DNA of 33,217 nucleotides from Desulfobacteraceae bacterium (GTDB lineage: Bacteria; Desulfobacterota; Desulfobacteria; Desulfobacterales; Desulfosalsimonadaceae): NCBI GenBank assembly GCA_027353395.1, contig DAIEHU010000001.1:1-33217 (forward strand), in the 5' to 3' direction. Positions 16,388 to 33,217 of the stretch are shown piece after piece (within the stretch, counting starts at the first letter, position 1; the number at the start of each line of letters is the position of its first letter). Under the pieces are notes generated by a model that saw only the letters and a list, made by a program, of their open reading frames with translations, was not told where the DNA came from and ran no database searches. The translations under genes were made by a program, and so were the position numbers.

Positions 16388-16411
16388 CGCATTTCCCGTT
16401 TAAGAATCATC

Positions 16412-16672
16412 CTATAATGCCTTTTCTCGGATCGCAGCTTCTGGAACAATGACTTCAATCTCATCTTTGCGGACATTTAAAAATGTCGTTTTCATGACTG
16501 TTGCGCCATTATATGGGTGAGGTCTCACTTCGGCATCCGTCACCGATATAAATGCGTTTGACTCATTCATGTAATCCGTCAGCCGGACCCCCTGATAAAT
16601 ATTTATATAGCCTTTGATTTCAAAGCGATGTGTAAAAATAAGAAATTTTTGTTTTCCGGCGTCATCATTCAT
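16412..16672 (-). CDS. Small hypothetical protein, first gene of the pilT pair operon
   Basis: The 86-aa ORF has the SD GGAG (in AGGAGACCGCC) before the ATG and ends 24 nt before the next start. I recognise no family. Confidence 0.5.
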   Translation of the reverse strand: MNDDAGKQKFLIFTHRFEIKGYINIYQGVRLTDYMNESNAFISVTDAEVRPHPYNGATVMKTTFLNVRKDEIEVIVPEAAIREKAL

Positions 16673-16862: not shown

Positions 16863-16891
16863 TTGACAATGATTAAACTCAATTTTAAAGT
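16863..16891 (+). promoter_or_regulatory. Candidate sigma-70 promoter for the acyl-CoA catabolic locus
   Basis: TTGACA (16863-16868), a 17-nt spacer, then TAAAGT (16886-16891). The site sits in a 363-bp AT-rich gap about 145 nt upstream of ATG 17036. Confidence 0.35.
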
Positions 16892-17035: not shown

Positions 17036-18178
17036 ATGGATTTCGCATTCACCAAAGAACAATTGATGTTCAAAAAAGAGATTATCCGGTTCGCCAAAAA
17101 AGAGATTGTCCCTCGTATTCAGGAACATGATTTAAAAAAGCAGTTTGATTTTGAATCGTTTAAAAAGCTTGGAGAGTTCGGCATCCTTGGTTTGCATTTT
17201 CCCGAAGAATATGGCGGGAGCGGGGCGGATGTCATCACCACCGTAATGGCCGGCGAGGCATTGGGAGAAGCGGGTGTTGACGGGGGTCTGACGTTGGCCT
17301 ACGGCGCTCACACCTTCCTGTGTGCGGACACCATTTTTTCTCATGGCACCGAGGCCCAGCGGAAAAAATACATCCCCAAGCTGGCCAGCGGCGAATGGAT
17401 CGGATGCATGGGCCTGACCGAACCGAATGCCGGCTCGGATGTCGCCTCCATGACTACCACCGCTGAAAAAAAAGACGGCAAATACGTCTTAAACGGCAGC
17501 AAAATATTTATCACCAACGGACCCATCGCCGATGTCGCCGTGATTTACGCAAAAACCGATCCGTCGCAAAAACATACCGGAATTTCAGCCTTTATCGTTG
17601 AAAAAGGGACTCCTGGATTCGCATCCGGCCCCAACCTGATTAAAATGGGCGTCAGCACTTCCCAGACGTCCGAACTCTTTCTGAACAACTGTGAAATTCC
17701 GGCGGAAAATATGCTTGGCCGTGAAGGCGAAGGATTTAACATGTCTCTTCAAACTGTGGAATGGGATCGAAGCGCCCTGCTCGCTCCTTTTGTGGGCGCG
17801 TCCACCTACATGCTGAACCGGTGCGTGGAATACGCCAGCAGCCGGGAACAGTTCGGCAGGAAAATCGGCCAGTTCCAGGCCATCAAACAAAAAATCGCCA
17901 ATATCCGCATTTTCGGCGAGGCGGCCCGCAACCTCGTCTACCGGATCGCATGGTGCAAGAATCAGGGACGGCCCATGAATCACCTGGAAGCTGCTGTAGC
18001 CAAACTTTTTGTCGGCGACTGGAGTCTGGCCCCGGCCAATGACGCGGTTGTTCTTTTCGGCGGCTACGGCTACTGCCACGAGTATGATATGGAGCGGATT
18101 TTCAGAGACAGTCGGCTGGCCCCCATTGGCGGCGGCACATCCGATATTCAGAAAATGATTATCTCCAAACTGATGTAA
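17036..18178 (+). CDS. Acyl-CoA dehydrogenase
   Basis: The 380-aa ORF has the ACAD signature GLTEPNAGSDVAS, FITNGPIADV, FGGYGYCHEYDMERIFRD and IGGGTSDIQ. AGGAG (17025-17029) precedes the ATG. Confidence 0.9.
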   Translation: MDFAFTKEQLMFKKEIIRFAKKEIVPRIQEHDLKKQFDFESFKKLGEFGILGLHFPEEYGGSGADVITTVMAGEALGEAGVDGGLTLAYGAHTFLCADTIFSHGTEAQRKKYIPKLASGEWIGCMGLTEPNAGSDVASMTTTAEKKDGKYVLNGSKIFITNGPIADVAVIYAKTDPSQKHTGISAFIVEKGTPGFASGPNLIKMGVSTSQTSELFLNNCEIPAENMLGREGEGFNMSLQTVEWDRSALLAPFVGASTYMLNRCVEYASSREQFGRKIGQFQAIKQKIANIRIFGEAARNLVYRIAWCKNQGRPMNHLEAAVAKLFVGDWSLAPANDAVVLFGGYGYCHEYDMERIFRDSRLAPIGGGTSDIQKMIISKLM

Positions 18179-18222
18179 AGAACCTACGGACATTCCAGAG
18201 CGAAAAAAAGAGGAGAACACAA

Positions 18223-19359
18223 ATGAATTATGACTTCAGCGATAAAGAATTTAATCTTTTTGTGGAAATACATACGTTGATGGGGACATTCGCGAAAGAG
18301 AACGATTTGGAGACCAAGGATGCGGAAAAATCGGAGAAAAACACCCGACGGGCCCTGGCGCTCCTTTCCAGAACCCCTTATTTAACATTGGGTATCGAAA
18401 AAGCAGATAATTATAATGGTCTGCTCACGCTCATGGGCGGCATGGAAACTATCGCTGCGGCTTCGCCGTCTCTGTTTTTATCCATCGAAACCAGCACCCG
18501 GATTTTTGGACGGATTTTAAGCGCCTGGGGCAGCGCCTCCCAAAAGGAAAAACTGCTGCCGGCCCTGTTGAACGGTCAGATCATCGGTGCGGTTGGCTTA
18601 TCGGAAGACGCCATGAACGTGGACAATGATCCCCTGATGACCACGGCGGTGATGGACGGGGACAGCGCAATCATTTCCGGACACAAACAGTATGTGGTGA
18701 ACGGCCCCGTTGCGGACTGGTTAGCTGTCGCGGGAAGGCTGGACGGGAAAAACGCCATTTTTCTGGTTGAAAAAGGGACGCAAGGGCTCTCCATTGGTGG
18801 AAAAGCCGCTACCTTGGGCTATGAAGGCGTTGCCATTTCCAATCTGATGTTCGAAAACTGCGCTATTGCATCAAGCCAGGTGATCTTTCCCGAAAATGAC
18901 AAAACGATGTTAACCACGCTAAAGCTATGGGAAAACCAGATTCTTATCGGAGCGAGCCTGGGGCTCATGAAAAGGGCATTTGAGTCGGCAAAAGTATATG
19001 CCAAAAAACACAAAACCGGAGGAAAGCCGATCATCGCCTATCAGGAAGTCGGGTTCAAATTGGCTCAAATGCTGACCCTGTTTCAGGCTTCTCAATTATT
19101 TGCTTACAAGGTCGCGTGGGCGGCGGATGCCGAACCGAAGGACATTGAATCATTAACTCTTTGCGCCAAGGTGTTCTGTACGGAAGCCGCCGAGCAGGTG
19201 GCCGGCGACGCCATGAAAATTCTCGGCGGTTCGGGATTTTTATCCGGAAACCCTGTGGAAGAAGCATTCCGCTGCGCCAAGTATGGGCAGATCGCTGGAA
19301 CTTCCACTGAAATTTCGCGGGTCAAAATCGGCGACAGCGCCTTGGGTTTGATGAAATAG
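18223..19359 (+). CDS. Acyl-CoA dehydrogenase-fold protein with degenerate signature motifs; possible non-FAD partner subunit
   Basis: At 378 aa it has ACAD length and layout (VVNGPVADW, ILGGSGF, IAGTSTEI). The signature-1 block reads GLSEDAMNVDNDP instead of [ST]E..[GA]G[ST]D, and signature 2 is also off consensus. Confidence 0.8.
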   Translation: MNYDFSDKEFNLFVEIHTLMGTFAKENDLETKDAEKSEKNTRRALALLSRTPYLTLGIEKADNYNGLLTLMGGMETIAAASPSLFLSIETSTRIFGRILSAWGSASQKEKLLPALLNGQIIGAVGLSEDAMNVDNDPLMTTAVMDGDSAIISGHKQYVVNGPVADWLAVAGRLDGKNAIFLVEKGTQGLSIGGKAATLGYEGVAISNLMFENCAIASSQVIFPENDKTMLTTLKLWENQILIGASLGLMKRAFESAKVYAKKHKTGGKPIIAYQEVGFKLAQMLTLFQASQLFAYKVAWAADAEPKDIESLTLCAKVFCTEAAEQVAGDAMKILGGSGFLSGNPVEEAFRCAKYGQIAGTSTEISRVKIGDSALGLMK

Positions 19360-19377
19360 AAAAGAGAAAGACGAACC

Positions 19378-20052
19378 ATGCCTGCAAAAAAATTAATAAA
19401 AGAAGAAAATTTATCCAAATCCGCCCAGCGGCGGCAGCGGGAACGGGAGCATCGCTATCAGACCATTCTGACAGCGGCTGAAAAACTTTTCGCCACGGAA
19501 GGCTACCACAAATCCAGCATGGAGCAGATCGCCAATGCCTCTGAAGTGTCGGTGGGCGCAGTTTATTTTTATTTTAAAAACAAAGAGGATCTTATCATTC
19601 AGCTCTTGGATGAAATCGGATATGTACTTCGAAGCACGCTGGGCAATGCGTTTAAAAAACATGGTCCCACCATGGAAGGCTTCAAGCAGGCGGGGTATGC
19701 TTTTTTTGAAGACTTCTGCGTAAACTACCCGGAAAAATGCGCCATTATCTTCCGGGAATCGGTCGGCAACAGTCCCGAACTGGAGGGGCGCCGGAAAAAG
19801 CTCTTTGAAAAATGCACCGGCGACGTGCGCTCCGCCTTACTGTCGGTTTGCGAGAATCAAGGGCTGAAGTTTAAGGGGCAATATTCGGCTGAAGTGATCG
19901 CCGTCAGCATTATGGGGATTTACGAACGCGTTGCCTATCAATATTTGTTCTGGCAGGACGCCTCCAACGATATCCGTCTCATCGGCCGCGACGCTGTGGG
20001 TTTTATCACCGGCGGCGTCAACTATCTGCTCAATGAAATCTCATGCACTTAA
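19378..20052 (+). CDS. TetR/AcrR-family transcriptional regulator
   Basis: N-terminal HTH region: ILTAAEKLFATEGYHKSSMEQIANASEVSVGAVYFYFKNKEDL. Length is 224 aa. Confidence 0.9.
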   Translation: MPAKKLIKEENLSKSAQRRQREREHRYQTILTAAEKLFATEGYHKSSMEQIANASEVSVGAVYFYFKNKEDLIIQLLDEIGYVLRSTLGNAFKKHGPTMEGFKQAGYAFFEDFCVNYPEKCAIIFRESVGNSPELEGRRKKLFEKCTGDVRSALLSVCENQGLKFKGQYSAEVIAVSIMGIYERVAYQYLFWQDASNDIRLIGRDAVGFITGGVNYLLNEISCT

Positions 20053-20615
20053 AAGGCGCTTTGCATACCCATACGACCTGTTCCGACGGTGAACTGACCA
20101 TCGAAGAAGCCGTTCGGATATACACCGGACTGGGATTTGATTTTATCGCCCTCACGGACCATGACTACCTCATGCGGCCGGACTGCTACAGGTCGGTCGC
20201 AGCCCTGAAGACCGCTCTGATCATTTTTACCGGCGTGGAAATGACCGTTTTTGAAAAGGGGTACGTGCATGTCAACCGGATTGATGGGGACAAGGATGTT
20301 CTCCATGTTTTCAATCATCCCTCAGAACTCGATCTCCCCATGGAAAAAGCAATTGAAAGGATTTGCGCTGTCTCGGAAAAGTTTCCGCTGGATGCGGTGG
20401 AAGTGACTTCCAAGGGATTCCGTGCCCCCGAATTTGAAATTCCGCGAATCCCGTTGCCGAAAGTCGCCACGGATGATTCCCATACCCGGATCGGATGCGG
20501 AAGGGCATGGATTGAGATGGATTGCATGAGGGATAAAGACAAAATCATCCGGGCTATCCGGCACGGGGATTTTTGGAACTGTTACACGGAAACCCGTTAT
20601 TTGTTTATAAAATAA
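20043..20615 (+). CDS. Minimal PHP-domain metal-dependent phosphoesterase
   Basis: The 190-aa ORF has HTHTTCSDG, ALTDHD, GVEM, FNHP and TDDSH, which is the full PHP metal-ligand series. Its start overlaps the TetR stop by 10 nt. Confidence 0.7.
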   Translation: MHLKGALHTHTTCSDGELTIEEAVRIYTGLGFDFIALTDHDYLMRPDCYRSVAALKTALIIFTGVEMTVFEKGYVHVNRIDGDKDVLHVFNHPSELDLPMEKAIERICAVSEKFPLDAVEVTSKGFRAPEFEIPRIPLPKVATDDSHTRIGCGRAWIEMDCMRDKDKIIRAIRHGDFWNCYTETRYLFIK

Positions 20616-20652
20616 AAATATATAGCCCATTCAAATGAAGGAGGGACATGCA

Positions 20653-21813
20653 ATGGCGAAAAGAGTTGGTATTTGTGCGGTTGCGCAGACAACATATGAG
20701 CGCGACAAAAAAGACATCCGGTTTCAGGGCATGGCCCTGGAAGTTCTGGAAGCGCTCCGGAAACAGGTGGATGTCACATTTTCACGGCATGTGAAGGGCG
20801 CTAAAGGCGTCGATATGTCCATCAGCGTATCCGACGATATATTTGACGCCCGGACCATCTCGGACAATGCAATGACGGATGTCCTCGGCGCGCATTTCGG
20901 ATGCGAGGAAAAGGTCGCTCAGGAAGGGATTCAGGCATTGTATTACGCTTTGGCCGCAATCCAGTCCGGACACAACAATATGGTGCTGGTGATGGGCCAC
21001 TGCAAGGAGTCCCAGGCGCAAAGCCGGAACATGGTGACCCACATGGCCTTTGATCCCTTTTTTACCCGTCCCGTGGGAATTGATTTCTGCGCAGCGGCTG
21101 GTCTGCAGGCCCAGGCATACAGCGCCAAATCGCAAATCACGGATGAACATCTGGCGAAGATCGTCGTCCGCGCAAGGGAAAACGCATCCAAAAACCCATG
21201 TACGCAGGAAATCGGCAAAGTGTCCGCGGAAGAGGTCATGGCATCTCCGATGCTGGTCGATCCCATTCGCGAACTGCACGCCTATCCGGTTTCGGACGGG
21301 GCTGTGGGCATGATTCTCGCCACGGAAGATACCGCCAAAAAAATATGCAAAAATCCGGTCTGGATTACCGGCGTCGGCAACTGCATGGACAGTTTCTTTT
21401 TGGGCGACCGCGATTTGACTTCCAATTTCGCCCTGAAAAAGGCCGTGCAATATGCGTATAAACGAGCCGGTATCACAGATCCCCGGTCCGCCTTTGACGT
21501 CATTGAATTGTCCGACCAGTACGCCTATCAGCTTCCCATGTGGGCGGAAGGCATCGGTCTCTGCGATGCCGGGAAAGGCGCGAAATGGCTGGACGGCGGC
21601 GGGCCGGTTAAACAGAACGTCAATACGTCAGGCGGTATGCTGGCCGGCAACCCGCTGATCTTGGGCGGACTTGTCCGTGCGGCGGAGGCGGCCATTCAAC
21701 TGCGCGGCGAGGCCGGGGACCGTCAGATCAACAATGCAAAAACAGCCATCGCTCATGGCGTTATGGGGCCGGCAGGTCAATTTCATTCAGTCATCACATT
21801 GGCAAGGGCTTAG
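20653..21813 (+). CDS. Thiolase-fold protein A (SCP-x/Ltp-like) lacking the canonical catalytic residues
   Basis: Thiolase-fold blocks are present: YPVSDGAVGMILA, NTSGGMLAGNPLILGG and QLRGEAGDRQ. Ala occupies the nucleophile position (KVAQEG). ATG 20653 follows AAGGAGGG (20638-20645); the ORF-track start at 20635 is an alternative. Confidence 0.85.
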   Translation: MAKRVGICAVAQTTYERDKKDIRFQGMALEVLEALRKQVDVTFSRHVKGAKGVDMSISVSDDIFDARTISDNAMTDVLGAHFGCEEKVAQEGIQALYYALAAIQSGHNNMVLVMGHCKESQAQSRNMVTHMAFDPFFTRPVGIDFCAAAGLQAQAYSAKSQITDEHLAKIVVRARENASKNPCTQEIGKVSAEEVMASPMLVDPIRELHAYPVSDGAVGMILATEDTAKKICKNPVWITGVGNCMDSFFLGDRDLTSNFALKKAVQYAYKRAGITDPRSAFDVIELSDQYAYQLPMWAEGIGLCDAGKGAKWLDGGGPVKQNVNTSGGMLAGNPLILGGLVRAAEAAIQLRGEAGDRQINNAKTAIAHGVMGPAGQFHSVITLARA

Positions 21814-21823
21814 GAGGCGAACA

Positions 21824-23002
21824 ATGAAAAAAAATAGAAATGTCGGCATTATCGGAGTAGGCCAATCCGTTTTTTCAAGCCATCGGGAAGAGGTGAACCA
21901 GCCGGAAATGATTCATGAAGCGGTTCTCGAGGCATTACAACATGCGGGAATGACCATTGGGGATGTGGACTGCATCGTTCATGGTAATATGGAACTCTTT
22001 GAAATGATTCATCAGCCTGATCTTTGGCATACCCTGGGCACCGGCGCTTATGGCAAGGAAACCCTGCGGGTCACCACCGGCGGCACCACCGGGGCCACCC
22101 TATGCTGCACGGCGGATTATCTGGTCTCATCCGGGCTTCACGACGTGGTGCTGGCTATCGGTTTTGAAAAGCTCCAGGAAGGGCATACCACCGGCGGCAT
22201 CACCAACATGGCCGATGCGCTCTGGGCCAGACAGCTTCAGACCGGCGCCTTAACCGGTATGACAGCCGCCCAGGTCATCGAAGAATTTGGCGAAGAACGG
22301 GCGAAAAAAGCCGCCATGAAATACAGAATTATCATGGACAAACATGCCATGAAAAATAAAAAAGCCCACCGCCGTCTGGGCCTTGAATTTGACCAGGCGG
22401 ATGACCTGATGGTCAATTCTCCGGCCCTGGTGGGTGAACTTCGCATGATTCATATGTGTTCCCAGTCTGATGGCGCCTGCGCCATGATTTTCGCCTCCGA
22501 GGAAAAAGCCAAACAGTTCTGCAAGCAGCCTGCATGGATCAAGGACCATATTACAGTCCACCGGGAAGAAAGCTTCTGCCTTTTCGGCGACGCGCCCGTT
22601 GTCTATTCTCACCGGTATGCTGCTGAAAAATTGTTTGAACGCAACGGTATCAAGAATCCGCGCAAAGAAATCGATATGTTTGAAATGTATGACCCGTCTT
22701 CCTGGTGGGGGCTTGACTGGCTCCGGCAGTTTCTGCTGTTTGAAGGGGATGAACATCTCAAAATGGTGGAAAATGACGATATCACCATTGACGGCAGCTT
22801 TCCGGTGAATCCATCCGGCGGCGTCACGGCATCGAATCCCATCGGGGCCACGGCCATGGTAAGGGTGGCGGAAGCGGCTCTTCAAATTATGGGGGACGCG
22901 GGCGATCATCAGGTCAAAAAGACCGTTAACCAAGCCTTGGCATCGGGATTCGGCGGGACCATGTGGACGGTTCTGTTCCTGCTGACCCGGAACGTCCCAT
23001 AG
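21824..23002 (+). CDS. Thiolase-fold protein B (SCP-x/Ltp-like) lacking the canonical catalytic residues
   Basis: AIGFEKLQEG, CSQSDGACAMIFASEE and NPSGGVTASNPIGATAMV are present, with Gly at the nucleophile position (TTGGTTGA). ATG 21824 follows AGGAGG (21812-21817). The ORF-track start at 21671 overlaps gene A and is rejected. Confidence 0.85.
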   Translation: MKKNRNVGIIGVGQSVFSSHREEVNQPEMIHEAVLEALQHAGMTIGDVDCIVHGNMELFEMIHQPDLWHTLGTGAYGKETLRVTTGGTTGATLCCTADYLVSSGLHDVVLAIGFEKLQEGHTTGGITNMADALWARQLQTGALTGMTAAQVIEEFGEERAKKAAMKYRIIMDKHAMKNKKAHRRLGLEFDQADDLMVNSPALVGELRMIHMCSQSDGACAMIFASEEKAKQFCKQPAWIKDHITVHREESFCLFGDAPVVYSHRYAAEKLFERNGIKNPRKEIDMFEMYDPSSWWGLDWLRQFLLFEGDEHLKMVENDDITIDGSFPVNPSGGVTASNPIGATAMVRVAEAALQIMGDAGDHQVKKTVNQALASGFGGTMWTVLFLLTRNVP

Positions 23003-23043
23003 TAGGTGGGGATTCTTTCCCGACAAACTGAAAAATACCCATT

Positions 23044-23062
23044 GCCGGGTAAGAAACCCGGC
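23044..23062 (+). terminator. Weak intra-operon hairpin (attenuator or processing site?)
   Basis: GCCGGGT-AAGAA-ACCCGGC gives a 7-bp stem followed by CTGTTTTA, in the 109-nt gap between gene B and the ligase fusion. Confidence 0.25.
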
Positions 23063-23111
23063 CTGTTTTAAAGATTAAACATATCAAAAAGCCATCTTTG
23101 AGGAGGCAGAA

Positions 23112-25457: not shown

Positions 25458-25478
25458 TGATCCTATAGGAGACAAATT

Positions 25479-26378
25479 ATGAGCACAGCAACAAATGATT
25501 GTTTTATCGTCAATGGGAAGCTGGCCCTTCCCTATCAATACTTTGCCGGCCGAGCCGGAAGCCGGTTTATCATCAGCCTGCGGGATGAAAAAAAAATCAG
25601 GGGCTTAAAATGTCAGAAGTGCGGCAAAGTGTTTGTTCCGCCACGGGCTACCTGTGAAACCTGCTTTGAAGACATATGCGAGAACTGGGTGGATGTGAAA
25701 AATACGGGCGTTGTCACCTGTTTTACCATCATCCGCTATAAAGAGCCCCATCAGCCGGTTGACCCGCCCTATATTCTGGGGCTTGTCAAACTGGACGGCG
25801 CGGACACCCCGCTCGCCCACATCGTCAAAGGCGTACCTTTGAGCAAGATGAAAACCGGCCTCAAGGTCAAGGCGGTGTTCGCCAAAAAAACCACCGGCGG
25901 CATTATGGATATTGATCATTTCCAGGTAGTTGATGACAAACCTAAATTTGAAATGGGCTATTCCTATGATGAACTGGAGATCGGCATGTCCGCATCGTTT
26001 ACCAAAACGATTTCAGAGACCGATGTCTACCTGTTCGCGGGGATTTCCGGGGATTTCAACCCCATGCATATGAACGAAGAATTCGCCAAGATGACGCCTT
26101 TCGGCACCCGTATCGCTCATGGGGCTCTGCCCCAAAGTCTTATAGCGCCGGTTCTCGGCATGAAACTTCCGGGCCTGGGCACGGTCATTCCGGAAATCAC
26201 CGTCCGGTTCAAACGGCCCACCTATTTTGGCGACACCATCACCGCCATCGGCGAGGTCGTCGAAAAAATAGAAAAAAAACGATGGGTCCGCATGGAGCTC
26301 CGCTGGACCAATCAAAAAGATGAACTGGTGGCGGAGGGGTCTTGCCTGGCCATACCGCCGATGCCATTCAATAAATAA
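25479..26378 (+). CDS. DUF35 (Zn-ribbon/OB-fold) fused to a MaoC-like (R)-specific enoyl-CoA hydratase
   Basis: Residues 1 to about 150 have KCQKCGKVFVPPRATCETC plus an OB-fold. Residues about 160-299 carry the hot-dog hydratase-2 motif FAGISGDFNPMHMNEEFA (nt 26034-26087) and IAHGAL. Confidence 0.85.
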   Translation: MSTATNDCFIVNGKLALPYQYFAGRAGSRFIISLRDEKKIRGLKCQKCGKVFVPPRATCETCFEDICENWVDVKNTGVVTCFTIIRYKEPHQPVDPPYILGLVKLDGADTPLAHIVKGVPLSKMKTGLKVKAVFAKKTTGGIMDIDHFQVVDDKPKFEMGYSYDELEIGMSASFTKTISETDVYLFAGISGDFNPMHMNEEFAKMTPFGTRIAHGALPQSLIAPVLGMKLPGLGTVIPEITVRFKRPTYFGDTITAIGEVVEKIEKKRWVRMELRWTNQKDELVAEGSCLAIPPMPFNK

Positions 26379-26390
26379 GGATAAAATTGC

Positions 26391-27554
26391 ATGACATACG
26401 AATTCAAAACCGAATCCACCTATCAGGAATATTTCACCAAATCCCATGATCTGGTCAGAAAATCCGTCCGGGAATTTATTAAAAAAGAAGTGCTGCCGTT
26501 TATCAACGAATGGGAGGAAGCCGGGGAGTTCCCGAAAGAAATATACAAAAAAGCCGGGGATGTGGGAATCTTAGGTATTGGGTTTCCCGAAAAATTTGGT
26601 GGCACGCCGGGAGATATCTTTTTTGGGGTGGCGGCCAGCGAGGAACTCATGCGGTCCACTTCTGGCGGTTTTTGCGCAGGGCTGGGCTCCTTAAATATCG
26701 CGTTGCCCCCGATTTTAAACCTGGGTTCAGAGGAACTGAAACAAAAATTCATCCCGCCCGTGCTGGCCGGAGATAAAATCGCGGCCCTGGCCATCACTGA
26801 ACCCGGCGGGGGATCGGATGTGGCGAATATCAAAACAACGGCAGTGAAAGACGGCGGCCATTATATTATCAACGGCAGCAAGACGTTTATCACCAGCGGC
26901 TGCCGGGCCGACCAGGTCACCTGTGCGGTCCGCACCGGCGGGGAAGGCGCAAAGGGCATCAGCATGATCGTTGTGGAAAAAGGAACGCCGGGCTTTTCCG
27001 TCTCCAAAAAACTGAAAAAAACCGGCTGGTGGGCATCCGACACGGCCGAGCTCTTTTTCGACAATTGCCGCGTGCCGGCGGCAAACCTGATCGGCGAGGA
27101 AAACCAGGGATTCTACGCCATCGTGATCAATTTCCAGCAGGAACGGCTGGCGCTGGCGGTTATGGCCAACATGACGGCCCGCATGGCCCTTGAAGAAGCC
27201 ATCAAATATGCGAAGCAACGGGAAGCCTTCGGCAAACCCCTGACCGGTTTTCAGGTGACCCGGCACAAGCTGGCGGACATGGCGACACTGGTGGAGGCCA
27301 GTACGGAATTCACCTACCGGGTGGCGGCCAAAATCGGCGCGGGCGTCGACCAGATCAAGGAAGTGTCCATGGCCAAGAATTTTGCCTGTTCTGTCAGCGA
27401 CAAGGTCACTTTTGACGCGGTCCAGATTTTCGGCGGGTATGGCTATATGCGGGAATACGTGGTGGAGCGCCTGTACCGGGACAACCGGATCCTTTCCATC
27501 GGCGGCGGAACAACGGAAATCATGAAAGAAATCATATCCAAAATGATGATGTGA
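26391..27554 (+). CDS. Acyl-CoA dehydrogenase
   Basis: The 387-aa ORF has AITEPGGGSDVAN, FITSG, QIFGGYGYMREYVVERLYRD and IGGGTTEI. Confidence 0.9.
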   Translation: MTYEFKTESTYQEYFTKSHDLVRKSVREFIKKEVLPFINEWEEAGEFPKEIYKKAGDVGILGIGFPEKFGGTPGDIFFGVAASEELMRSTSGGFCAGLGSLNIALPPILNLGSEELKQKFIPPVLAGDKIAALAITEPGGGSDVANIKTTAVKDGGHYIINGSKTFITSGCRADQVTCAVRTGGEGAKGISMIVVEKGTPGFSVSKKLKKTGWWASDTAELFFDNCRVPAANLIGEENQGFYAIVINFQQERLALAVMANMTARMALEEAIKYAKQREAFGKPLTGFQVTRHKLADMATLVEASTEFTYRVAAKIGAGVDQIKEVSMAKNFACSVSDKVTFDAVQIFGGYGYMREYVVERLYRDNRILSIGGGTTEIMKEIISKMMM

Positions 27555-27655
27555 AAGACAGGGGGGACGGATAACACCGGATACAGGCCAATCGTTTACT
27601 CGTTTTTCTCATAGCGGGAAGTTCTGGCGACACTTACACCATTGCACAAGGAGAC

Positions 27656-29458
27656 ATGATGGAAAAAACAATCACTGAAGTTTTCAAAAATCGCTCCCAA
27701 AAATATAAGAACCGGCTGGCCGCCGAGAAGAAAAAAAGCGGCAAATGGGAAAAGATGACCTGGAGCGAATATTATGATCGCGCCCGATTTCTCGGCATCG
27801 GTCTCTATTCTCTGGGAATCAAAAAAGGGGACATGGTTGCCATCCTGTCTGAAAACTGTCTGGAATGGATTGTCACCGACATGGGGGCTCTGGGTATTGG
27901 CGCCGTGGTGGTGCCGGTTTATACGACGCTGGTCGCCGAAGAAGTCAAATATATTGTTGAAAATTCAGAATCCAAGGTCATTTTTGTTGAAAATAAAATG
28001 CAGCTCGACAAGATCCTCTCTTTTGTTGATGAAGTGAAGTCTCTGGAAAAAATCGTGGTTTTCAATAACAGGGACGCCAAAAACAGCCATCCGGAAGTCA
28101 TCAGCTTTGAGGAACTCCTTGCCTCCGGAAAAGACGGCATTGAAAAACCGGCCTTGTTTGAGACCCTTGCCGCTGAAGTCGCCCCGGAAGACCTGGCCAC
28201 CATTGTTTACACTTCCGGCACCACCGGCGTTCCCAAAGGGGCCATGATCACCCATAAAAACATCATGGCGGTCATCCGTTCGCTGGACAGCATCATCCCC
28301 AAATTCGCCTATGATACGGACCAGACCGTGCCGCTGCTGCCGCTCAGCCATGTATTCGAGCGCGTGGCCGGCCATTTTTACGGCATGTACGTGGGGCTCA
28401 CGGCTTCCTACGCCGAAAGCATCGACACCTTTGTGGTGGATGTCAAGGAAAAGCGCCCGACGGTGGTTCTGGCGGTTCCCAGGGTTTGTGAAAAAGTCTA
28501 CCAACGGATTCTCGGCCAGGTGGAGGAACAGCCCGAGTGGAAGCAAAAAATGTTCCACTGGGGATACAATGTGGGCCTTGAGATCAGCGCGTTGCGGGAA
28601 AAGAAAAAGCCGATTCCGCTGTTCCTTGGGCTTCAATACAAGCTGGCCTATAATCTGATCTTTAAAAAACTGGCGGATGCATTGGGGGGAAGGGTCCGGT
28701 GGATGACTGCATCCGGCGCGCCCACGTCCCGGGATATCATCCTGTTTTTCAATGCCTCCGGCATCACCGTCATTGAAGGATACGGCATGACGGAATCCTG
28801 CGCCCCGGCCACCATGAGCAGTCTTTCGGATTATAAAATAGGGACGGTCGGGAAACCGCTGCCAGGTGTTGATATCAAAATCGCCGAAGATGGCGAAATT
28901 CTGGTCAAGGGCGATAATGTATTCGCCGGATACTGGAAAATGGAAAAAGAAACGAAAAACGCCTTCACGGATGACGGGTATTTGATGAGCGGGGATATCG
29001 GGAAATTCGACGAAGATGGATTTCTGCTGATCACGGACCGGAAAAAAGATCTGATCATTACTTCCGGCGGGAAAAATGTCGCACCCCAGAAAATTGAGGG
29101 AATTTTCAAATTCGATCCCCTGTTCGCCCAGTTTATTGTGGTGGGGGAACGGAAAAAATTCTTGAGCGCGCTGATCAATATTAACCTGGAACAGGCCCAG
29201 CGGCTTGCCGCACAGCAGGGCGTCGCATTCGATAAACCACAGGACTTGCTGGACAACAAGGCGTTTCTGAAAATCGTGGATGAGCATGTTGCGGAGAAAA
29301 ATCAAAAACTGGCCCGGTATGAAACCATCAAAAAATACCGGATTATTCGCGATGAATTTTCTCAGGAAGGCGGAGAATTGACCCCGTCGCTGAAGATGAA
29401 GCGCAATGTGATTTATAAAAAATACGACGGCCTCATTGATACGATGTATGAGGGTTGA
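27656..29458 (+). CDS. Long-chain-type AMP-forming acyl-CoA synthetase (FACL/FadD-like, 600 aa)
   Basis: IVYTSGTTGVPKGAMITHKN, EGYGMTE, GDIGKFDEDGFLLITDRKKDLIITSGGKNVAPQKIE, and a C-terminal LTPSLKMKR. Confidence 0.9.
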   Translation: MMEKTITEVFKNRSQKYKNRLAAEKKKSGKWEKMTWSEYYDRARFLGIGLYSLGIKKGDMVAILSENCLEWIVTDMGALGIGAVVVPVYTTLVAEEVKYIVENSESKVIFVENKMQLDKILSFVDEVKSLEKIVVFNNRDAKNSHPEVISFEELLASGKDGIEKPALFETLAAEVAPEDLATIVYTSGTTGVPKGAMITHKNIMAVIRSLDSIIPKFAYDTDQTVPLLPLSHVFERVAGHFYGMYVGLTASYAESIDTFVVDVKEKRPTVVLAVPRVCEKVYQRILGQVEEQPEWKQKMFHWGYNVGLEISALREKKKPIPLFLGLQYKLAYNLIFKKLADALGGRVRWMTASGAPTSRDIILFFNASGITVIEGYGMTESCAPATMSSLSDYKIGTVGKPLPGVDIKIAEDGEILVKGDNVFAGYWKMEKETKNAFTDDGYLMSGDIGKFDEDGFLLITDRKKDLIITSGGKNVAPQKIEGIFKFDPLFAQFIVVGERKKFLSALININLEQAQRLAAQQGVAFDKPQDLLDNKAFLKIVDEHVAEKNQKLARYETIKKYRIIRDEFSQEGGELTPSLKMKRNVIYKKYDGLIDTMYEG

Positions 29459-29475
29459 AAAGAGGAGGGAGAAAT

Positions 29476-30630
29476 ATGAGCGGTAGAGTCGCCGTCTGCG
29501 CCGTGGCGCAGATCAAGAACGAACCGGATATCTGGTATCAGAGATTCCAGGGGATGCTCTTTGAGTGTTTTGAATCCATCATCAAGCAAACCGGGGTGAC
29601 CTTCGACATGGAAAAGGGCATCCGGAACATCATCACCTGCTCCGATGACGTGTTTGACGCCCGCACCATTTCCGACAACGGCGTGACGGACGCGGTGGGC
29701 GCGCATTTCCGGGGCGAGGAAAAGGCCGCCCAGGATGGCATCAACGGCTTGGGATATGCCATGGCATCCATTCTGTCCGGTCACGATGATCTGGTGCTCT
29801 TGATGGGGCACTGCAAGGAATCCCAGTCGGAAAGCCGGAATATGTGCAGCAATCTGGCATTCGATCCGTTTTTCTGCCGGCCCCTGGGACTGGATTTCTT
29901 AAATGCCGCCGCTTTTCAGGCCCGGGCCTATATGAATAAATCCGGAGTCACGGATGCGCATCTGGCAAAAATTGTCTCCCGTTCCCGCAAGCTTGCGGCT
30001 AAAAATCCATATGCCAGAGAAAACGATCCCATCACGGAACAGAATGTTTTAGAATCACCGCTCCTGGCCGATCCCATCCGGCAACTGCACCAGTACCCGG
30101 TCACTGACTGGGCGGTGGGAATGCTCCTGTGCTGCGAGGATCGCGCCCGTGAGTTTACGGACAACCCGGTATTTCTCACCGGATTCGGAAGCTGCATGGA
30201 CAGTTATTTTCTGGGGGACAGAGACCTGGCGTCCAATTTCGCCCTAAAAAAAGCCGCGCAACGGGCTTACCGCATGGCCGGAATTTCAGATCCCAAAAAA
30301 GAGTTTGATATTGCGGAATTAAATGACGCCATTGCCTATCAATTGCCCATGTGGGCGGAAGGTCTGGGACTTGCCGATGAAAATCAGGGGGGCGAATGGG
30401 TTGCATCCGGAGCGTTGGATGCCCAGCACGTCAACCTTTCCGGGGGCATGCTAAACGGCAATCCGATTATGCTGGGGGGGCTTGCCCGGGCAACGGAAGC
30501 CATTTTACAGCTCAGGGGCGAAGCCGGCGACCGGCAGGCGGAAGGTGCTGCAAAAGCCGTGGCCCACGGAACCACAGGCCCGGCCGGGCAGCACCATGCG
30601 GTGATTATTCTTGAGAGGCAGGGGGTATGA
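29476..30630 (+). CDS. Thiolase-fold protein A', paralogue of 20653..21813
   Basis: It shares DDVFDARTISDN, GAHFRGEEKAAQDGI, MGHCKESQ, AYQLPMWAEGLGL, SGGMLNGNPIMLGG and QLRGEAGDRQ with A. ATG 29476 follows AGGAGGG. The ORF-track start at 29455 is a TTG that overlaps the ligase stop. Confidence 0.85.
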   Translation: MSGRVAVCAVAQIKNEPDIWYQRFQGMLFECFESIIKQTGVTFDMEKGIRNIITCSDDVFDARTISDNGVTDAVGAHFRGEEKAAQDGINGLGYAMASILSGHDDLVLLMGHCKESQSESRNMCSNLAFDPFFCRPLGLDFLNAAAFQARAYMNKSGVTDAHLAKIVSRSRKLAAKNPYARENDPITEQNVLESPLLADPIRQLHQYPVTDWAVGMLLCCEDRAREFTDNPVFLTGFGSCMDSYFLGDRDLASNFALKKAAQRAYRMAGISDPKKEFDIAELNDAIAYQLPMWAEGLGLADENQGGEWVASGALDAQHVNLSGGMLNGNPIMLGGLARATEAILQLRGEAGDRQAEGAAKAVAHGTTGPAGQHHAVIILERQGV

Positions 30631-31829
30631 ACAAAATGGGATATAAAAAGAAAAACAGAAATGTCGGCATCGTCGGCATCGGCGAAACCAAATTTTCCAG
30701 CCACCGGGAAGACGTGAACCAGCCGGAAATGATTCATGAAGCCGTCCGCCAGGCGCTGGATGATGCGGGGCTCAAAATCGATGATATCGACTGCGTGGTC
30801 CACGGCAACATGGAACTGTTTGAAATGATTCACCAGCCGGACCTCTGGCATGTGCTGGGAACCGGCGCGCATGGAAAGGATTCTTACCGTCTCACCACCG
30901 GCGGCACCACCGGCGGGACGCTGGTCTGCGCCGCGGATAACCTGGTCGCCTCCGGCATGTACGATGTGGTCATGGCCATCGGGTTTGAAAAACTTCAGGA
31001 AGGCCATACCACCGGCGGCATCACCAATATGGCGGACCCGCTATGGGCAAGGAAGCTTCAGTCCGGGGCGTTGACGGCCCAGGCGGCCGTAAAGCTCATC
31101 GATGAATTCGGAGCGGACCGGGCCCGGAAAGCGGCCATGACCTACCGCATCATCATGGACAAGCACGCCTGTAAAAATCCCAACTCCCACCGGGCGTTCG
31201 GTCTGGATTGGGACCAGATGGACGATCTCATTAAAAATTCCCCGCCGCTCATTGGCGATCTGCGGCTCATCCACATGTGCTCCCAGTCGGACGGGGCCTG
31301 CGCCATGATTTTTGCATCCGAGGAAAGGGCCAGGCAGATCGCAAAGACCCCGGTATGGATCCGGGACCATATCACCGTGCACCGGGAAGAGACCCTGGAT
31401 ATGCACAATAATTTTTATCCCAATAGAACAACCCACCGGTTTGCCGCGGAAACCCTTTTTAAACGCAACGGCATCACAAATCCCCTGGAATATTTTGACG
31501 TGTTTGAAATGTATGACCCGTCCGCATGGTGGGGACTTGACTGGCTACGGGAATTTTTTTTGCTCAAAGGCGACGAGCATCTAAAGCTGGTGGAAAACCA
31601 CGAAATTATGATTGACGGCAAAATGCCCGTCAATCCATCCGGAGGCGTCATCTCCGCCAATCCCATTGGCGCCACCGCCATGGTCCGGACGGCCGAGGCC
31701 GCCAAGCAGGTCCGGGGCAATGCAGGTCCGCACCAGATACCAAGGCCCGTCAACCATGCCTTGGCATCCTCTTTCGGCGGGACCATGTGGACAGTGTTAA
31801 CCATGCTTGAAAAAGAATTGAACTGGTAG
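30627..31829 (+). CDS. Thiolase-fold protein B', paralogue of 21824..23002
   Basis: It shares NQPEMIHEAV, HGNMELFEMIHQPDLWH, TTGGTTGG, AIGFEKLQEGHTTGGITNMAD, CSQSDGACAMIFASEE, FEMYDPSAWWGLDWL, NPSGGVISANPIGATAMV and FGGTMWTVL with B. It has an ATGA overlap with A'. Confidence 0.85.
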   Translation: MNKMGYKKKNRNVGIVGIGETKFSSHREDVNQPEMIHEAVRQALDDAGLKIDDIDCVVHGNMELFEMIHQPDLWHVLGTGAHGKDSYRLTTGGTTGGTLVCAADNLVASGMYDVVMAIGFEKLQEGHTTGGITNMADPLWARKLQSGALTAQAAVKLIDEFGADRARKAAMTYRIIMDKHACKNPNSHRAFGLDWDQMDDLIKNSPPLIGDLRLIHMCSQSDGACAMIFASEERARQIAKTPVWIRDHITVHREETLDMHNNFYPNRTTHRFAAETLFKRNGITNPLEYFDVFEMYDPSAWWGLDWLREFFLLKGDEHLKLVENHEIMIDGKMPVNPSGGVISANPIGATAMVRTAEAAKQVRGNAGPHQIPRPVNHALASSFGGTMWTVLTMLEKELNW

Positions 31830-31838
31830 GGGGAATCC

Positions 31839-32687
31839 ATGACTGAATTTTACGGAATCAAAATTGAAGACATATTCAATTCCATGAAGGGCCGCTTCCG
31901 TCCCGAAGGCGCTTCCGGCGTCACAAACACCTTCGGTTACGCCATCAAGGATGCCGGCAAATGGAAACTGACCATTGCAAACGCTGCAATGGCGATTGAA
32001 AAAACCGATGACCTGTCCGGATGCGATGTGGTTTTAGACACGGACGCTGAAACATTCGTGGGCTTAAACATTGGGAAAGTGGACGCCATGTCCGCCCTGA
32101 CCTCCCGGAAGCTGAAAGTGAGGGGGGATTTCAATACCTTCGGCCTGACCAGCCGGATGTTTCAAAAATACGTGACGCCGGGACAGGAAACAAGGCAGGC
32201 GCAGGAGCTGATCGCCCTTAAAAAAACCATTTCGGTGAATCAGCGCTTTGCTACGGGCCCTGTTTTCGGCAAATTTTTGAAAGGATTAAAAGACAAAAAA
32301 ATACTGGCCATCAAATGCCCGGTGTGCGGGCGGCTTCAATCTCCTCCCAGGGAAACCTGCGCCATTTGCAGGGCCAGAAATAATGAATGGGTGGAAATCG
32401 GACCCAAGGGAGAACTTCGGATGATGGAATACTGCTATTACGCCAGCCCGGACCCCCTGACCGGCGAGACCCGCGAAACCCCTTATGGAGCCGTCGGCAT
32501 TCTTCTGGACGGGTGCAAAGACGAAGAAGTATTCTGGCATCTGCTCCGCCCGGACCAGCTGGACCAGGCCAAAATGGGAAATGTGTTTTACGGCAAGGTG
32601 ACCCACGGCACCCGGCTGCGGCCGGTCTGGAATGAAAAAAGAACCGGCACCATAGAAGACATTAAATATTTTGAAATCGACGAATGA
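31839..32687 (+). CDS. SCP2-DUF35 didomain protein, paralogue of the C-terminal 270 aa of 23112..25457
   Basis: The N-terminal SCP2 pattern is VDAMSALTSRKLKVRGDFNTFGLTSRMF. It is followed by FATGPVFGKFL, KCPVCGRLQSPPRETCAIC, YASPDPLTGETRETPY and RPVWNEKRTG. Confidence 0.85.
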   Translation: MTEFYGIKIEDIFNSMKGRFRPEGASGVTNTFGYAIKDAGKWKLTIANAAMAIEKTDDLSGCDVVLDTDAETFVGLNIGKVDAMSALTSRKLKVRGDFNTFGLTSRMFQKYVTPGQETRQAQELIALKKTISVNQRFATGPVFGKFLKGLKDKKILAIKCPVCGRLQSPPRETCAICRARNNEWVEIGPKGELRMMEYCYYASPDPLTGETRETPYGAVGILLDGCKDEEVFWHLLRPDQLDQAKMGNVFYGKVTHGTRLRPVWNEKRTGTIEDIKYFEIDE

Positions 32688-32698
32688 GGAGTCCGGTC

Positions 32699-33160
32699 AT
32701 GGATAAAAATTTCGATACAACAGATTGTTATATGATTGAAGGAAAACTGGCCCTGCCCTATACGTATTTCGCCGGGCGGGTGGGGAGCACATTTATTACG
32801 ACCATCCGCGACAGGCACAAAATCATGGGCGTGAAATGCAACGCCTGCAATAAGGTATTTGTGCCCCCCCGCCAGACATGCGAACGGTGCCTGGAAGATA
32901 TCCGTGACAACTGGGTGGAACTGGGCAATACCGGGGAGGTCGTCAATTTCACGGTCGTCCGCTACGATGACAAGCACCTGCCGAGAAAAGCCCCATTTGT
33001 AATGGCTATGATTCAACTTGATGGCGCGGACACGCCTATGGTGCATATTCTGGAAGGAATTGATCCTGAAAGAATCACCATCGGCCTGAAAGTCCAGGCG
33101 GTGTTTGCGGCAAAAACCACCAACACCATTTTAGACATCGATCATTTTGAACCGGTATAA
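32699..33160 (+). CDS. Stand-alone DUF35 (Zn-ribbon/OB-fold) protein, paralogue of the N-terminal half of 25479..26378
   Basis: GKLALPYTYFAGRVGSTFI, KCNACNKVFVPPRQTCERC, LDGADTP, LDIDHF. ATG 32699 follows GAGGAG (32687-32692). The ORF-track start at 32684 (ATGA overlap) is an alternative. Confidence 0.8.
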   Translation: MDKNFDTTDCYMIEGKLALPYTYFAGRVGSTFITTIRDRHKIMGVKCNACNKVFVPPRQTCERCLEDIRDNWVELGNTGEVVNFTVVRYDDKHLPRKAPFVMAMIQLDGADTPMVHILEGIDPERITIGLKVQAVFAAKTTNTILDIDHFEPV

Positions 33161-33175
33161 AAAAGGAACCCCATC

Positions 33176-33217
33176 ATGGCGCTCATCTATGAAAAAAAAG
33201 GCCGAATTGCTTATATT
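33176..33217 (+). CDS. 5' end of a further gene with a crotonase-like N-terminus (truncated by the window)
   Basis: ATG 33176 begins MALIYEKKGRIAYI, which resembles the usual enoyl-CoA hydratase start (..E..G.IA.ItLNRP). Only 14 codons are visible. Confidence 0.3.
   Translation, partial: MALIYEKKGRIAYI

Follow-up and report, generated by a model that had tools for sequence, protein, structure and literature searches.

Enzyme pairs in which a DUF35 domain staples an enoyl-CoA hydratase to a thiolase-fold aldolase are already known as a class. In Ltp2 and Sal, DUF35 is the docking adaptor, and two identical DUF35 domains flank the aldolase homodimer (PMC12329534, PMC11321319). The essential base is a tyrosine, Tyr294 of the motif YDHF in Ltp2 and Tyr302 of YDCY in Sal (PMC12329534). 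The bile-acid scheme of Pseudomonas comprises two ligases, Shy1/Sal1, the aldehyde dehydrogenase Sad, the second of the ligases, and Sal2, and the aldehyde product must be oxidized and re-activated (PMC8399759). According to a review (PMC6678751), Ltp3-Ltp4 is a proposed heteromeric aldol-lyase that acts on C24-branched sterol side chains to remove the branch. The Liu/Atu pathway deals with 3-methyl-2-enoyl-CoAs, whose beta-methyl group blocks normal beta-oxidation (PMC4097962). Here we describe a 15-gene locus (g1 to g15; Table 1) on a 33,217-nucleotide stretch of DNA from a Desulfobacteraceae bacterium (GenBank assembly GCA_027353395.1, contig DAIEHU010000001.1, positions 1 to 33,217; hereafter the window), which encodes two sets of paired thiolase-fold proteins, A1/B1 and A2/B2.

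We propose that this locus shortens hydrophobic, probably methyl-branched or isoprenoid-like acyl chains by an aldolytic variant of beta-oxidation; on sequence and context, we regard this proposal as evenly poised between right and wrong. Carbon-carbon bond cleavage by a hydratase and a retro-aldolase is the best reading of the locus and is supported by its sequence and genomic context, because the locus lacks both a thiolytic cysteine and a 3-hydroxyacyl-CoA dehydrogenase, the B proteins keep the tyrosine of the known aldolases, and an aldehyde:ferredoxin oxidoreductase (AOR) gene follows the locus in three relatives.

Comparison with described systems

The two-cycle bile-acid system of Pseudomonas and Comamonas is the closest functional analogue of the locus. 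Both have two CoA ligases, heteromeric acyl-CoA dehydrogenases (ACADs), an aldehyde-oxidizing enzyme and a second aldolytic cycle, the locus as far as its genes and those of its relatives tell. Since the locus holds two ligases and two aldolase modules, the Pseudomonas scheme was taken as the functional template. Sal, known from Pseudomonas stutzeri Chol1 and Comamonas testosteroni, is likewise a thiolase-fold protein with glycine at the nucleophile position and its catalytic tyrosine in a Y-D-x-x motif (PMC12329534). The bile-acid hydratase Shy has the same N-terminal DUF35 and C-terminal MaoC domain with an Asp/His dyad as g8, so that the DUF35-MaoC order, which an earlier sequence-only reading of the window had taken for a departure from known systems, is the Shy architecture (PMC11321319). 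Shy-Sal, too, uses a DUF35 docking domain, which in the locus is known from the genes alone.

Several features set the locus apart from this analogue. Sal is a homodimer, whereas A and B are distinct subunits; the YDCY motif of Sal contains an essential cysteine, whereas B has YDPS with proline, and neither A nor B has a detectable match to Sal. The MaoC domain of g8 is PhaJ-like, the second DUF35, carried on an SCP2 domain (with a ligase in g7), has no counterpart in Shy-Sal, and a PHP-domain gene is present. Sad is an NAD-dependent aldehyde dehydrogenase, in whose place relatives of the locus have an AOR. A further contrast is the strictly anaerobic host; the sister clusters of the locus, moreover, are Liu/Atu-like.

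In the ChsH1-ChsH2-Ltp2 system of Mycobacterium tuberculosis and Thermomonospora curvata, a MaoC hydratase is coupled through DUF35 to a thiolase-fold retro-aldolase, as predicted for the locus, and a heteromeric ACAD (ChsE1-ChsE2; predicted in the locus) and TetR-type control are shared. Unlike A/B, Ltp2 is a homodimer with a Tyr294/Tyr344 pair, and it is only a remote relative of B. ChsH1-ChsH2 is heteromeric, and one of its MaoC domains is inert; its DUF35 is C-terminal, whereas that of g8 is N-terminal. The sequence-only reading had matched the locus to this last cycle of actinobacterial cholesterol side-chain removal. The hydratase and retro-aldolase of that analogy remain the best reading, but the two-cycle bile-acid system fits better than the last cycle alone, and the steroid analogy, useful for mechanism, probably does not name the right class of substrate.

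The best annotated relatives of A and B belong to actinobacterial triads composed of an OB-fold/DUF35 gene and two thiolase-like genes of 354 and 388 amino acids (aa), which pass the NCBIfam cut-offs of PRK07937 and PRK08313, respectively. From gene lengths and order, and from the Rv3521-ltp4-ltp3 layout of M. tuberculosis, we take these two families to be Ltp4 and Ltp3. PMC6678751 cites Wilbrink 2012 for the lyase proposal on Ltp3-Ltp4. In the triad of Streptomyces clavuligerus, the PRK07937-type protein is 30% identical to A1 and the PRK08313-type protein 35% identical to B1. Against a PRK08313 cut-off of 514, B1 scores 273 and B2 265 (S. clavuligerus protein, 713); against a PRK07937 cut-off of 419, A1 scores 165 and A2 163 (S. 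clavuligerus protein, 550). Ltp3-Ltp4 also consists of two adjacent Cys-less thiolase-fold genes beside a DUF35/OB-fold gene; the counterparts of the triad in the window are g5-g6-g7C/g8N and g11-g12-g13-g14, and Y-x-P and x-N-P motifs are common to A/B and the triad proteins. The pair of distinct thiolase-fold subunits had been read as another departure from known systems; it corresponds to the Ltp3-Ltp4-type arrangement of actinobacteria (PMC6678751). Ltp3-Ltp4 has been characterized genetically only, and the actinobacterial triads differ from the locus in having no SCP2-DUF35 protein, DUF35-MaoC fusion or PHP gene.

Another cluster, on plasmid pLP1 of Rhodococcus qingshengii (L083:4670-12729), encodes two ACADs, MaoC_N, MaoC_C, a 304-aa hypothetical protein whose thiolase-like similarity to A1 is faint, a thiolase-like protein, DUF35, a CaiB-type CoA-transferase, a short-chain dehydrogenase/reductase (SDR) and a ligase. 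It looks like another uncharacterized hydratase-aldolase module.

The claim that no characterized system has the composition of the locus is borne out by the literature, PDB and NCBIfam, which yielded no close characterized homologue. Literature searches for one in sulfate reducers or other anaerobes found none, and no protein of the locus passed an NCBIfam equivalog cut-off. Mentions of DUF35 in Price et al. and in a paper on Desulfotomaculum and acetone were considered and set aside as irrelevant to this system. What is new is the predicted heteromeric core, the dual adaptors, one of them with SCP2 and a ligase, the anaerobic host and the cassette relation to Atu/Liu clusters.

Catalytic residues of the thiolase-fold proteins

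Alignment with an SCP2-type thiolase revealed a glycine at the position of the nucleophilic cysteine in A1, A2, B1 and B2, in agreement with the earlier description of these proteins as Cys-free. In B2 the thiolase motifs NNCSTGS, HDCF and GHP read TTGGTTG, YDPS and ANP; the latter two read YDPS and SNP in B1, SDQY and GNP in A1, and NDAI and GNP in A2. All four proteins lack the acid/base cysteine of HDCF and the histidine of GHP. As the nucleophilic cysteine is absent, they would be unable to form an acyl-enzyme for thiolysis or Claisen condensation; judged from these residues, they cannot be ordinary thiolases, a role that the sequence-only reading had said would undo its analogy. In a wider family set of 76 full-length representatives (50%-identity clusters), glycine occupies the nucleophile position in 67. 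The motif tyrosine is kept in 31 of the 76, mostly top-scoring ones, and asparagine in place of the GHP histidine predominates among the top-scoring representatives.

These residues bear on a possible thiolase-DUF35 system, that is, a beta-oxidation thiolase, a reverse-beta-oxidation or fatty-acid-synthase-like pathway, an HMG-CoA-synthase/thiolase/DUF35 assembly or a PhlACB-type acyltransferase. In both PDB and NCBIfam, A and B have SCP2-type and archaeal thiolases as their best relatives, and in the thiolase/HMG-CoA synthase complex two enzymes of the thiolase superfamily are linked by DUF35. In the archaeal fatty-acid synthase complex, as in Sulfolobus, DUF35 connects a ketothiolase with a reductase and a MaoC dehydratase (bioRxiv 10.1101/2024.07.05.601840), which adds to the appeal of such a system. 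However, it would require an acyl-enzyme on the cysteine that is glycine in all four proteins and in most of the family, and the acid/base cysteine and histidine are missing as well. Neither a ketoacyl-CoA reductase nor a 3-hydroxyacyl-CoA dehydrogenase was found in the locus, and Pfam and NCBIfam scans of its 14 complete genes detected no SDR domain. We therefore consider this explanation highly improbable and rejected its ordinary-thiolase, fatty-acid-synthase-, HMG-CoA-synthase- and PhlACB-like forms on the absence of the catalytic cysteine from all four thiolase-fold proteins.

The tyrosine of the YDPS motif in B1 and B2 corresponds to the catalytic tyrosine of Ltp2 and Sal; A1 and A2 have none at that position. 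Across loci, identities are higher for B (69-92%) than for A (61-87%), which makes B the likelier catalytic subunit and B1 the candidate catalytic aldolase subunit of its module. The invariant polar residues of B include Tyr289, His121, His242, His246 and Glu248/249, and A retains polar motifs of its own, SDDxFDARTIS and HCKESQ.

A further possibility is that A and B are non-catalytic lipid or acyl-CoA scaffolds resembling TLP and SLP proteins, with C-C cleavage performed by enzymes encoded elsewhere. Thiolase-like proteins without known activity do exist (M. smegmatis TLP1 and the Trypanosoma SLPs, which appear in the PDB matches), and A lacks even the tyrosine. Yet the many invariant polar residues, the strong conservation of B (at least 81% identity in the best 120 of 2273 B1 homologues) and the polar motifs of A argue for function, and no other C-C-cleaving enzyme is encoded in the locus, so that we think the scaffold explanation very unlikely. 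AlphaFold2 models of B1 and g8 (mean pLDDT 51 and 66; very low confidence for MaoC residues 181-235 of g8) were of too low a quality to compare folds, since the underlying alignments were shallow and made up of overly similar sequences.

Hydratase, dehydrogenases, regulator and PHP protein

In g8, the CxxC...CxxC cysteines of the Zn ribbon and the Asp/His motif GDFNPxH are invariant in 16 homologues, and the best 120 of 577 homologues are 68-93% identical to it. The nearest PDB entries to its MaoC domain are PhaJ-type short-chain hydratases (5cpg, 1iq6) and HTD2; no chain named Shy, whose substrate cavity is opened for steroid rings, was among the matches.

The dehydrogenase g1 has IGGGT, hence glycine, at the position of MCAD Glu376 and an aspartate at the helix-G position used by isovaleryl-CoA dehydrogenase (IVD) and LCAD. 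Similarly, g9 has QQERLAL on helix G, with an acidic residue at the IVD/LCAD position, and a C-terminal IGGGT; its top PDB matches are mycobacterial ACADs and human LCAD. Structures indicate that a base placed as in IVD and LCAD leaves room for branched or bulky acyl groups. Neither known base position of g2 carries an acidic residue (Asn on helix G, IAGTS at the C terminus), and g2 is poorly conserved across related loci (30-79% identity, compared with 71-94% for g1). These properties fit a non-catalytic partner such as those of the ChsE/Scd heteromers, so that g1 is probably the catalytic alpha and g2 the non-catalytic beta subunit of a predicted heteromeric ACAD. The alpha2-beta2 ACADs of the ChsE/Scd type are likewise encoded by adjacent genes, one of them for a subunit that lacks the base.

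The TetR gene g3 keeps its place in sister loci whichever of the two cassettes described below they carry. Immediately after it lies g4, whose N-terminal 80 residues resemble TrpH/YciV-type PHP enzymes. Wherever a fetched window-type locus extends far enough, a PHP gene lies directly upstream of the gene for thiolase-fold A, the rearranged Syntrophaceae loci L042 and L049 included; the second module has no PHP gene. The parts list of the sequence-only reading (TetR, ACADs, DUF35-MaoC, Cys-free thiolase-fold pair, SCP2 and ligases) agrees with Pfam and NCBIfam throughout but overlooked this conserved gene.

Module duplication and adaptor domains

The duplication of the module that had been noted earlier is real on sequence comparison: A1 and A2 are 59% identical, B1 and B2 70%, the C-terminal 281 residues of g7 and g13 45%, and residues 5-151 of g8 and g14 56%. 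Residues 137-280 of g13 form a complete DUF35 that is 31% identical to g14. Each module thus reads A - B - SCP2-DUF35 - DUF35, with two different full DUF35 domains. By analogy with the identical pair of Ltp2 and Sal, an A/B heterodimer would be flanked by two different DUF35 staples, one per side. One staple would tether the SCP2 lipid-binding domain (plus the ligase in g7), and the other, in module 1, the MaoC hydratase of g8, giving a predicted assembly ligase-SCP2-DUF35:A:B:DUF35-MaoC. In module 2 the second DUF35 (g14) is free-standing and the crotonase gene comes next.

The ligase part of g7 passes the NCBIfam cut-off of the long-chain ligase PRK06187 (492 against 476 bits), and the top NCBIfam match of g10 is FadD11, below its cut-off. 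The g7 protein of the window has 781 aa and one SCP2 domain; in close relatives (L002:6965-9982, L003, L010) it has 900-1010 aa and two. In Desulfobacter sp. CP054838.1 and Desulfobacterium MAG9, SCP2-DUF35 is encoded by a separate gene, without ligase.

Cassette exchange with carboxylase loci

We found 29 sister loci that share ACAD-alpha, ACAD-beta, MaoC (as a standalone gene) and the g9-type ACAD (and TetR in some) with the locus at 65-80% identity, lower for g2, and that also have a flanking ligase. They come from Syntrophales, Desulfomonile, Desulfatiglandaceae and Desulfobacterales and contain no thiolase-fold module. Their slot between ACAD-beta/TetR and MaoC holds genes for a carboxyltransferase, a biotin carboxylase, a biotin carboxyl carrier protein (BCCP) and a crotonase, mostly together with BKACE or AtuA. 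The PHP-A-B-SCP2-DUF35-DUF35 cassette takes the place of this carboxylase cassette in 32 loci, and no locus has both within the fetched 20 kb.

A PDB search with the carboxyltransferase of sister locus L047 gave 672 bits for the beta subunit of Pseudomonas methylcrotonyl-CoA carboxylase and 665 for human MCCB, 461 for geranyl-CoA carboxylase beta and about 230-250 for propionyl-CoA carboxylases; NCBIfam gave only a sub-threshold mmdA match. These scores indicate that the sister clusters are of the Liu/Atu type, for 3-methyl-2-enoyl-CoAs. Like the Atu/Liu clusters of Pseudomonas and of denitrifying Thauera and Castellaniella, which serve the use of acyclic terpenes and of leucine/isovalerate (PMC4097962, PMC4847356), they carry a carboxylase, a crotonase and, in some, AtuA. 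The beta-methyl branch is likely the target in the window as well. The window differs from them: domain scans detected no carboxylase, AtuA or HMG-CoA-lyase-type enzyme in it, and it would use direct hydration followed by retro-aldol cleavage. On the simplest reading of this shared position, the aldolase cassette provides another solution to the beta-methyl block, and the exchange points to methyl-branched, isoprenoid-type acyl-CoAs over steroid side chains.

The carboxylase clusters deserve notice in their own right. Their order (L051:4583-9972, L047:2549-9959 and about 27 more) is ACAD-alpha, ACAD-beta, carboxyltransferase, biotin carboxylase, BCCP, crotonase, BKACE/AtuA, MaoC and ACAD, and no HMG-CoA-lyase-type gene was present among the open reading frames scanned in L047 and L051. 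BKACE chemistry proceeds through an HMG-CoA-like adduct. BKACE might replace the lyase, with the thioester kept on the long fragment, as a new anaerobic variant of Liu/Atu; BKACE genes accompany both cassette types. Locus L044 (Desulfobacteraceae UBA4064) contains ACADs, TetR and PHP followed by MaoC and ACAD, with neither cassette; it may represent an intermediate in a deletion or result from an assembly artefact.

The sister clusters also weigh on the alternative of steroid, bile-acid or hopanoid side-chain cleavage. There, module 1 would remove acetyl-CoA from a C5-type side chain in the manner of Shy/Sal, the aldehyde would be oxidized and re-activated, and module 2 would take propionyl-CoA off a C3-type side chain in the manner of Ltp2/Sal2, leaving a ring ketone. 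The close function-for-function match with the two-cycle Pseudomonas/Comamonas system, the SCP2 domains and the Ltp4/Ltp3-like triads as best annotated relatives of A and B all speak for it. The crotonase that ends the locus has the cholesterol side-chain hydratase EchA19 as its top NCBIfam match, although below the cut-off (287 against 400 bits in the L003 counterpart of g15), and the side chain of C32 hopanoic acid is isostructural with that of bile acids. Nevertheless, sister clusters with flanks 65-80% identical are Liu/Atu-like and not steroid-like, the MaoC domain resembles PhaJ and has no Shy-named chain among its PDB matches, and A and B reach none of the Ltp-type NCBIfam cut-offs and are remote from Ltp2. 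Domain scans of the window detected no gene for ring degradation or side-chain hydroxylation, and we know of no steroid attack by Desulfobacterales, in which the locus is widespread. We thus regard side-chain cleavage as unlikely. Among the substrates suggested by the sequence-only reading, an isoprenoid or branched acid gains from the cassette exchange, and a steroid side chain loses.

Conservation and neighborhood in relatives

The order g1 to g14 plus crotonase, for which a distribution search had been recommended, is shared by many Desulfobacterales genomes in a scan that covered one genome for each GTDB species, with protein identities of 57-94% in the closest relatives and lower values for g2 in more distant ones. 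This indicates that the gene arrangement is under selection and not due to chance. Among the best 120 homologues each of g8 and B1, almost all come from Desulfobacterales, Desulfatibacillaceae and related assemblies. The locus was found in Desulfosarcina alkanivorans PL12 (at about 5.37-5.39 Mb of NZ_AP021874.1), in a Desulfosudis oleivorans assembly and in assemblies of Desulfatitalea, Desulfonema, Desulfatirhabdium and Desulfobacterium. The anaerobe-like character ascribed to the genome agrees with these relatives: the host is a strict anaerobe, a sulfate reducer of the Desulfobacterales.

An aldehyde-forming aldolase would be expected to need an aldehyde-oxidizing enzyme, a prediction that led us to inspect the genes after the terminal crotonase gene in relatives. 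An AOR gene directly follows the terminal crotonase gene in L003 (the closest relative, ~90% identical), L009 and L010. Directly after the locus, L016 encodes a FadL/TodX outer-membrane channel (19142-20524) and L012 a neutral/alkaline ceramidase (18575-20569), which hint at lipid substrates. In other loci, mobile elements or unrelated genes follow the crotonase gene. BKACE genes flank the window-type loci L001, L009, L010, L024 and L042.

Two of these neighbors suit a reversed reaction, in which the aldolase condenses a methyl ketone or aldehyde with acetyl-CoA to a 3-hydroxyacyl-CoA for ketone or aldehyde assimilation or for chain elongation. The aldehyde might arise from an acid by reverse AOR, and the product would be dehydrated by MaoC and reduced by the ACADs, or degraded further. 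Aldol reactions are reversible, the AOR gene is adjacent in the three relatives, and the BKACE genes of the five flanked loci encode enzymes that handle beta-keto acids. Some Desulfobacterales degrade acetone and higher ketones, and enoyl-CoA-reducing enzymes of the Bcd/AcrC type are among the top NCBIfam matches of g1 and g9, with scores below the cut-offs. Against condensation, the presence of two acyl-CoA ligases, including one fused to parts of the predicted complex, points to carboxylic acids as substrates, the sister cassette encodes the catabolic methylcrotonyl-CoA carboxylase route, and the locus has no electron-transfer flavoprotein or reductase partner. We consider condensation quite unlikely.

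The downstream end of the cluster shows signs of rearrangement. In Desulfobacter sp. CP054838.1, the g10-type ligase gene is fragmented by an inserted DDE transposase gene (L001:12473-15607), IS66-family elements flank the locus in L001 and L002, and toxin-antitoxin or restriction-modification genes mark the end of several other loci. These neighbors suggest that this end is a recombination hot spot.

Locus layout and flanking genes

As the sequence-only reading had stated (at least fifteen closely spaced, co-directional genes), the locus consists of 15 plus-strand genes running from position 17036 to the end of the window, with gaps of -10 to +109 bp. Domains were assigned to all of them with Pfam and NCBIfam (Table 1).

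TABLE 1 Genes and putative signals of the locus, in window coordinates
Feature	Position	Strand	Description
Sigma-70-like promoter match	16863-16891	+	TTGACA-17-TAAAGT, top match upstream of g1; consensus match only
g1	17036-18178	+	ACAD, all three ACAD domains (Pfam)
g2	18223-19359	+	ACAD-like, degenerate N-domain (N-domain match 25.6 bits)
g3	19378-20052	+	TetR-family regulator, PF00440, E = 3e-16
g4	20043-20615	+	Small PHP-domain protein, metal phosphoesterase-like, PF02811, 190 aa
g5	20635-21813	+	Thiolase-fold A1, Thiolase_C_1
g6	21824-23002	+	Thiolase-fold B1
Terminator-like hairpin	23044-23062	+	GC-rich, with T-run, in g6-g7 gap; 7-bp stem, 6 GC pairs
g7	23112-25457	+	Ligase-SCP2-DUF35 fusion: AMP-binding, AMP-binding_C, SCP2, zf-ChsH2
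g8	25479-26378	+	N-terminal DUF35 (Zn ribbon + OB fold) and (R)-specific MaoC enoyl-CoA hydratase
g9	26391-27554	+	ACAD, LCAD/IVD type
g10	27656-29458	+	Second acyl-CoA ligase, FadD11-like: AMP-binding, AMP-binding_C_3
g11	29455-30630	+	Thiolase-fold A2, A1 paralogue
g12	30627-31829	+	Thiolase-fold B2, B1 paralogue
g13	31839-32687	+	SCP2 and complete DUF35 (SCP2, zf-ChsH2)
g14	32684-33160	+	Free-standing DUF35 (zf-ChsH2, OB_ChsH2_C), paralogue of g8 N terminus
g15	33176-33217	+	Crotonase-family enoyl-CoA hydratase, first 14 codons; rest beyond window end

The start of g6 was set at the ATG at 21824, which has an AGGAGG site, and not at the start of the open reading frame at 21671. The peptide encoded by g15, MALIYEKKGRIAYI, matches the N terminus of an ECH_1 protein of 273 aa whose gene comes after g14 in L003. 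The promoter match and the hairpin between g6 and g7 leave room for more than one transcription unit: the hairpin may be an internal attenuator or a unit boundary, and the locus may be one operon or two or three adjacent units. Upstream of g1, no inverted repeat that could serve as a TetR operator was detected.

The flanks are as previously described, with genes for a glutamate-synthase-like protein, a YkgJ/CxxCxxCC protein and PilT-type ATPases. Two tandem PilT/T2SSE-type ATPase genes and a small DUF6812 gene (14259-16672, minus strand) are divergent from the locus, and L002 has the same neighbors. A 402-aa open reading frame without a Pfam match (11223-12431) adjoins a polyprenyl synthase gene (10207-11187).

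Discussion

In the pathway that we propose, ligase g7 or g10 would make an acyl-CoA, which an IVD/LCAD-type ACAD (the g1/g2 heteromer or g9) would convert to a 2-enoyl-CoA. In module 1, g8 would add water through its MaoC domain; in module 2, this step would probably fall to the crotonase g15. The Cys-less heteromer A1/B1 or A2/B2, with the B tyrosine as base, would then cleave the 3-hydroxyacyl-CoA by a retro-aldol reaction to acetyl- or propionyl-CoA and either a ketone, from a beta-methyl substrate, or an aldehyde. An aldehyde would be oxidized by AOR and the acid re-activated by the second ligase for a second cycle. In the beta-methyl case, a tertiary 3-hydroxy-3-methylacyl-CoA would give a methyl ketone and acetyl-CoA, formally the cleavage that Ltp2 performs at the tertiary C17 alcohol. 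As the positional alternative to the carboxylase route, the aldolase module would offer a biotin- and ATP-independent way past the beta-methyl block. The SCP2 domains, the FadL channel and the long-chain-type ligases suggest that the substrates are large and hydrophobic.

A number of observations weigh against this proposal. A ketone cannot be used by AOR or a ligase, so that the second module and AOR are not explained by beta-methyl substrates alone; either at least one cycle forms an aldehyde, its beta-position being unbranched or 2-methyl, or AOR takes part in oxidizing an alcohol or aldehyde further upstream. AOR follows the locus in only 3 of the ~10 loci whose downstream region is visible. 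The exchange shows that the cassettes are equivalent in position, which need not extend to function, and the PHP protein has no role in the model. The PhaJ-like MaoC domain suggests small substrates, for instance 3-methylcrotonyl-CoA yielding acetone.

Other points of this kind concern the aldolase itself. By sequence, A and B lie outside the Ltp2 and Sal clades and nearer to SCP2-type and archaeal thiolases, their nearest solved relatives (~25-30% identity in a PDB search), than to Ltp2. In that search Ltp2 (6ok1) was matched weakly by B2 (E = 5e-12) and B1 (6e-7), with better scores for true thiolases; A1 had no Ltp2 match, and no Sal chain was matched by A or B. Cys304 in YDCY, the second catalytic residue of Sal, is proline in B, and a PDB search with the C-terminal 135 residues of B did not list Ltp2, so that a counterpart of Ltp2 Tyr344 was not alignable.

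A narrower version of the proposal, possible though doubtful in our estimate, is a DUF35-stapled, carboxylase-independent anaerobic route for beta-methyl-branched acyl-CoAs, widespread in Desulfobacterales and present in some other anaerobes. The megacomplex would hydrate a 3-methyl-2-enoyl-CoA and release a methyl ketone and acetyl-CoA, and the second module and AOR would take over aldehyde cycles. If so, the isoprenoid ketones of anoxic sediments, for example 6,10,14-trimethylpentadecan-2-one, would have their enzymatic source in this route, which would also be an evolutionary alternative to the Atu/Liu carboxylase pathway, exchanged with it as a cassette.

The two alternative cassettes in one conserved slot are a natural experiment that makes their function directly testable. 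If our proposal is correct, DUF35-stapled thiolase-fold aldolases would not be limited to aerobic steroid degraders (Ltp2, Sal and, as proposed, Ltp3-Ltp4) and would be a general device by which strict anaerobes pass alkyl-branched positions in lipids. The predicted A/B core with its two different DUF35 adaptors, one of them bearing SCP2 and a ligase, would hand over substrates through an architecture new to acyl-CoA metabolism. In that case the locus would offer a candidate pathway for the anaerobic turnover of isoprenoid and branched lipids in sulfate-reducing sediments, without ATP- and biotin-dependent carboxylation.

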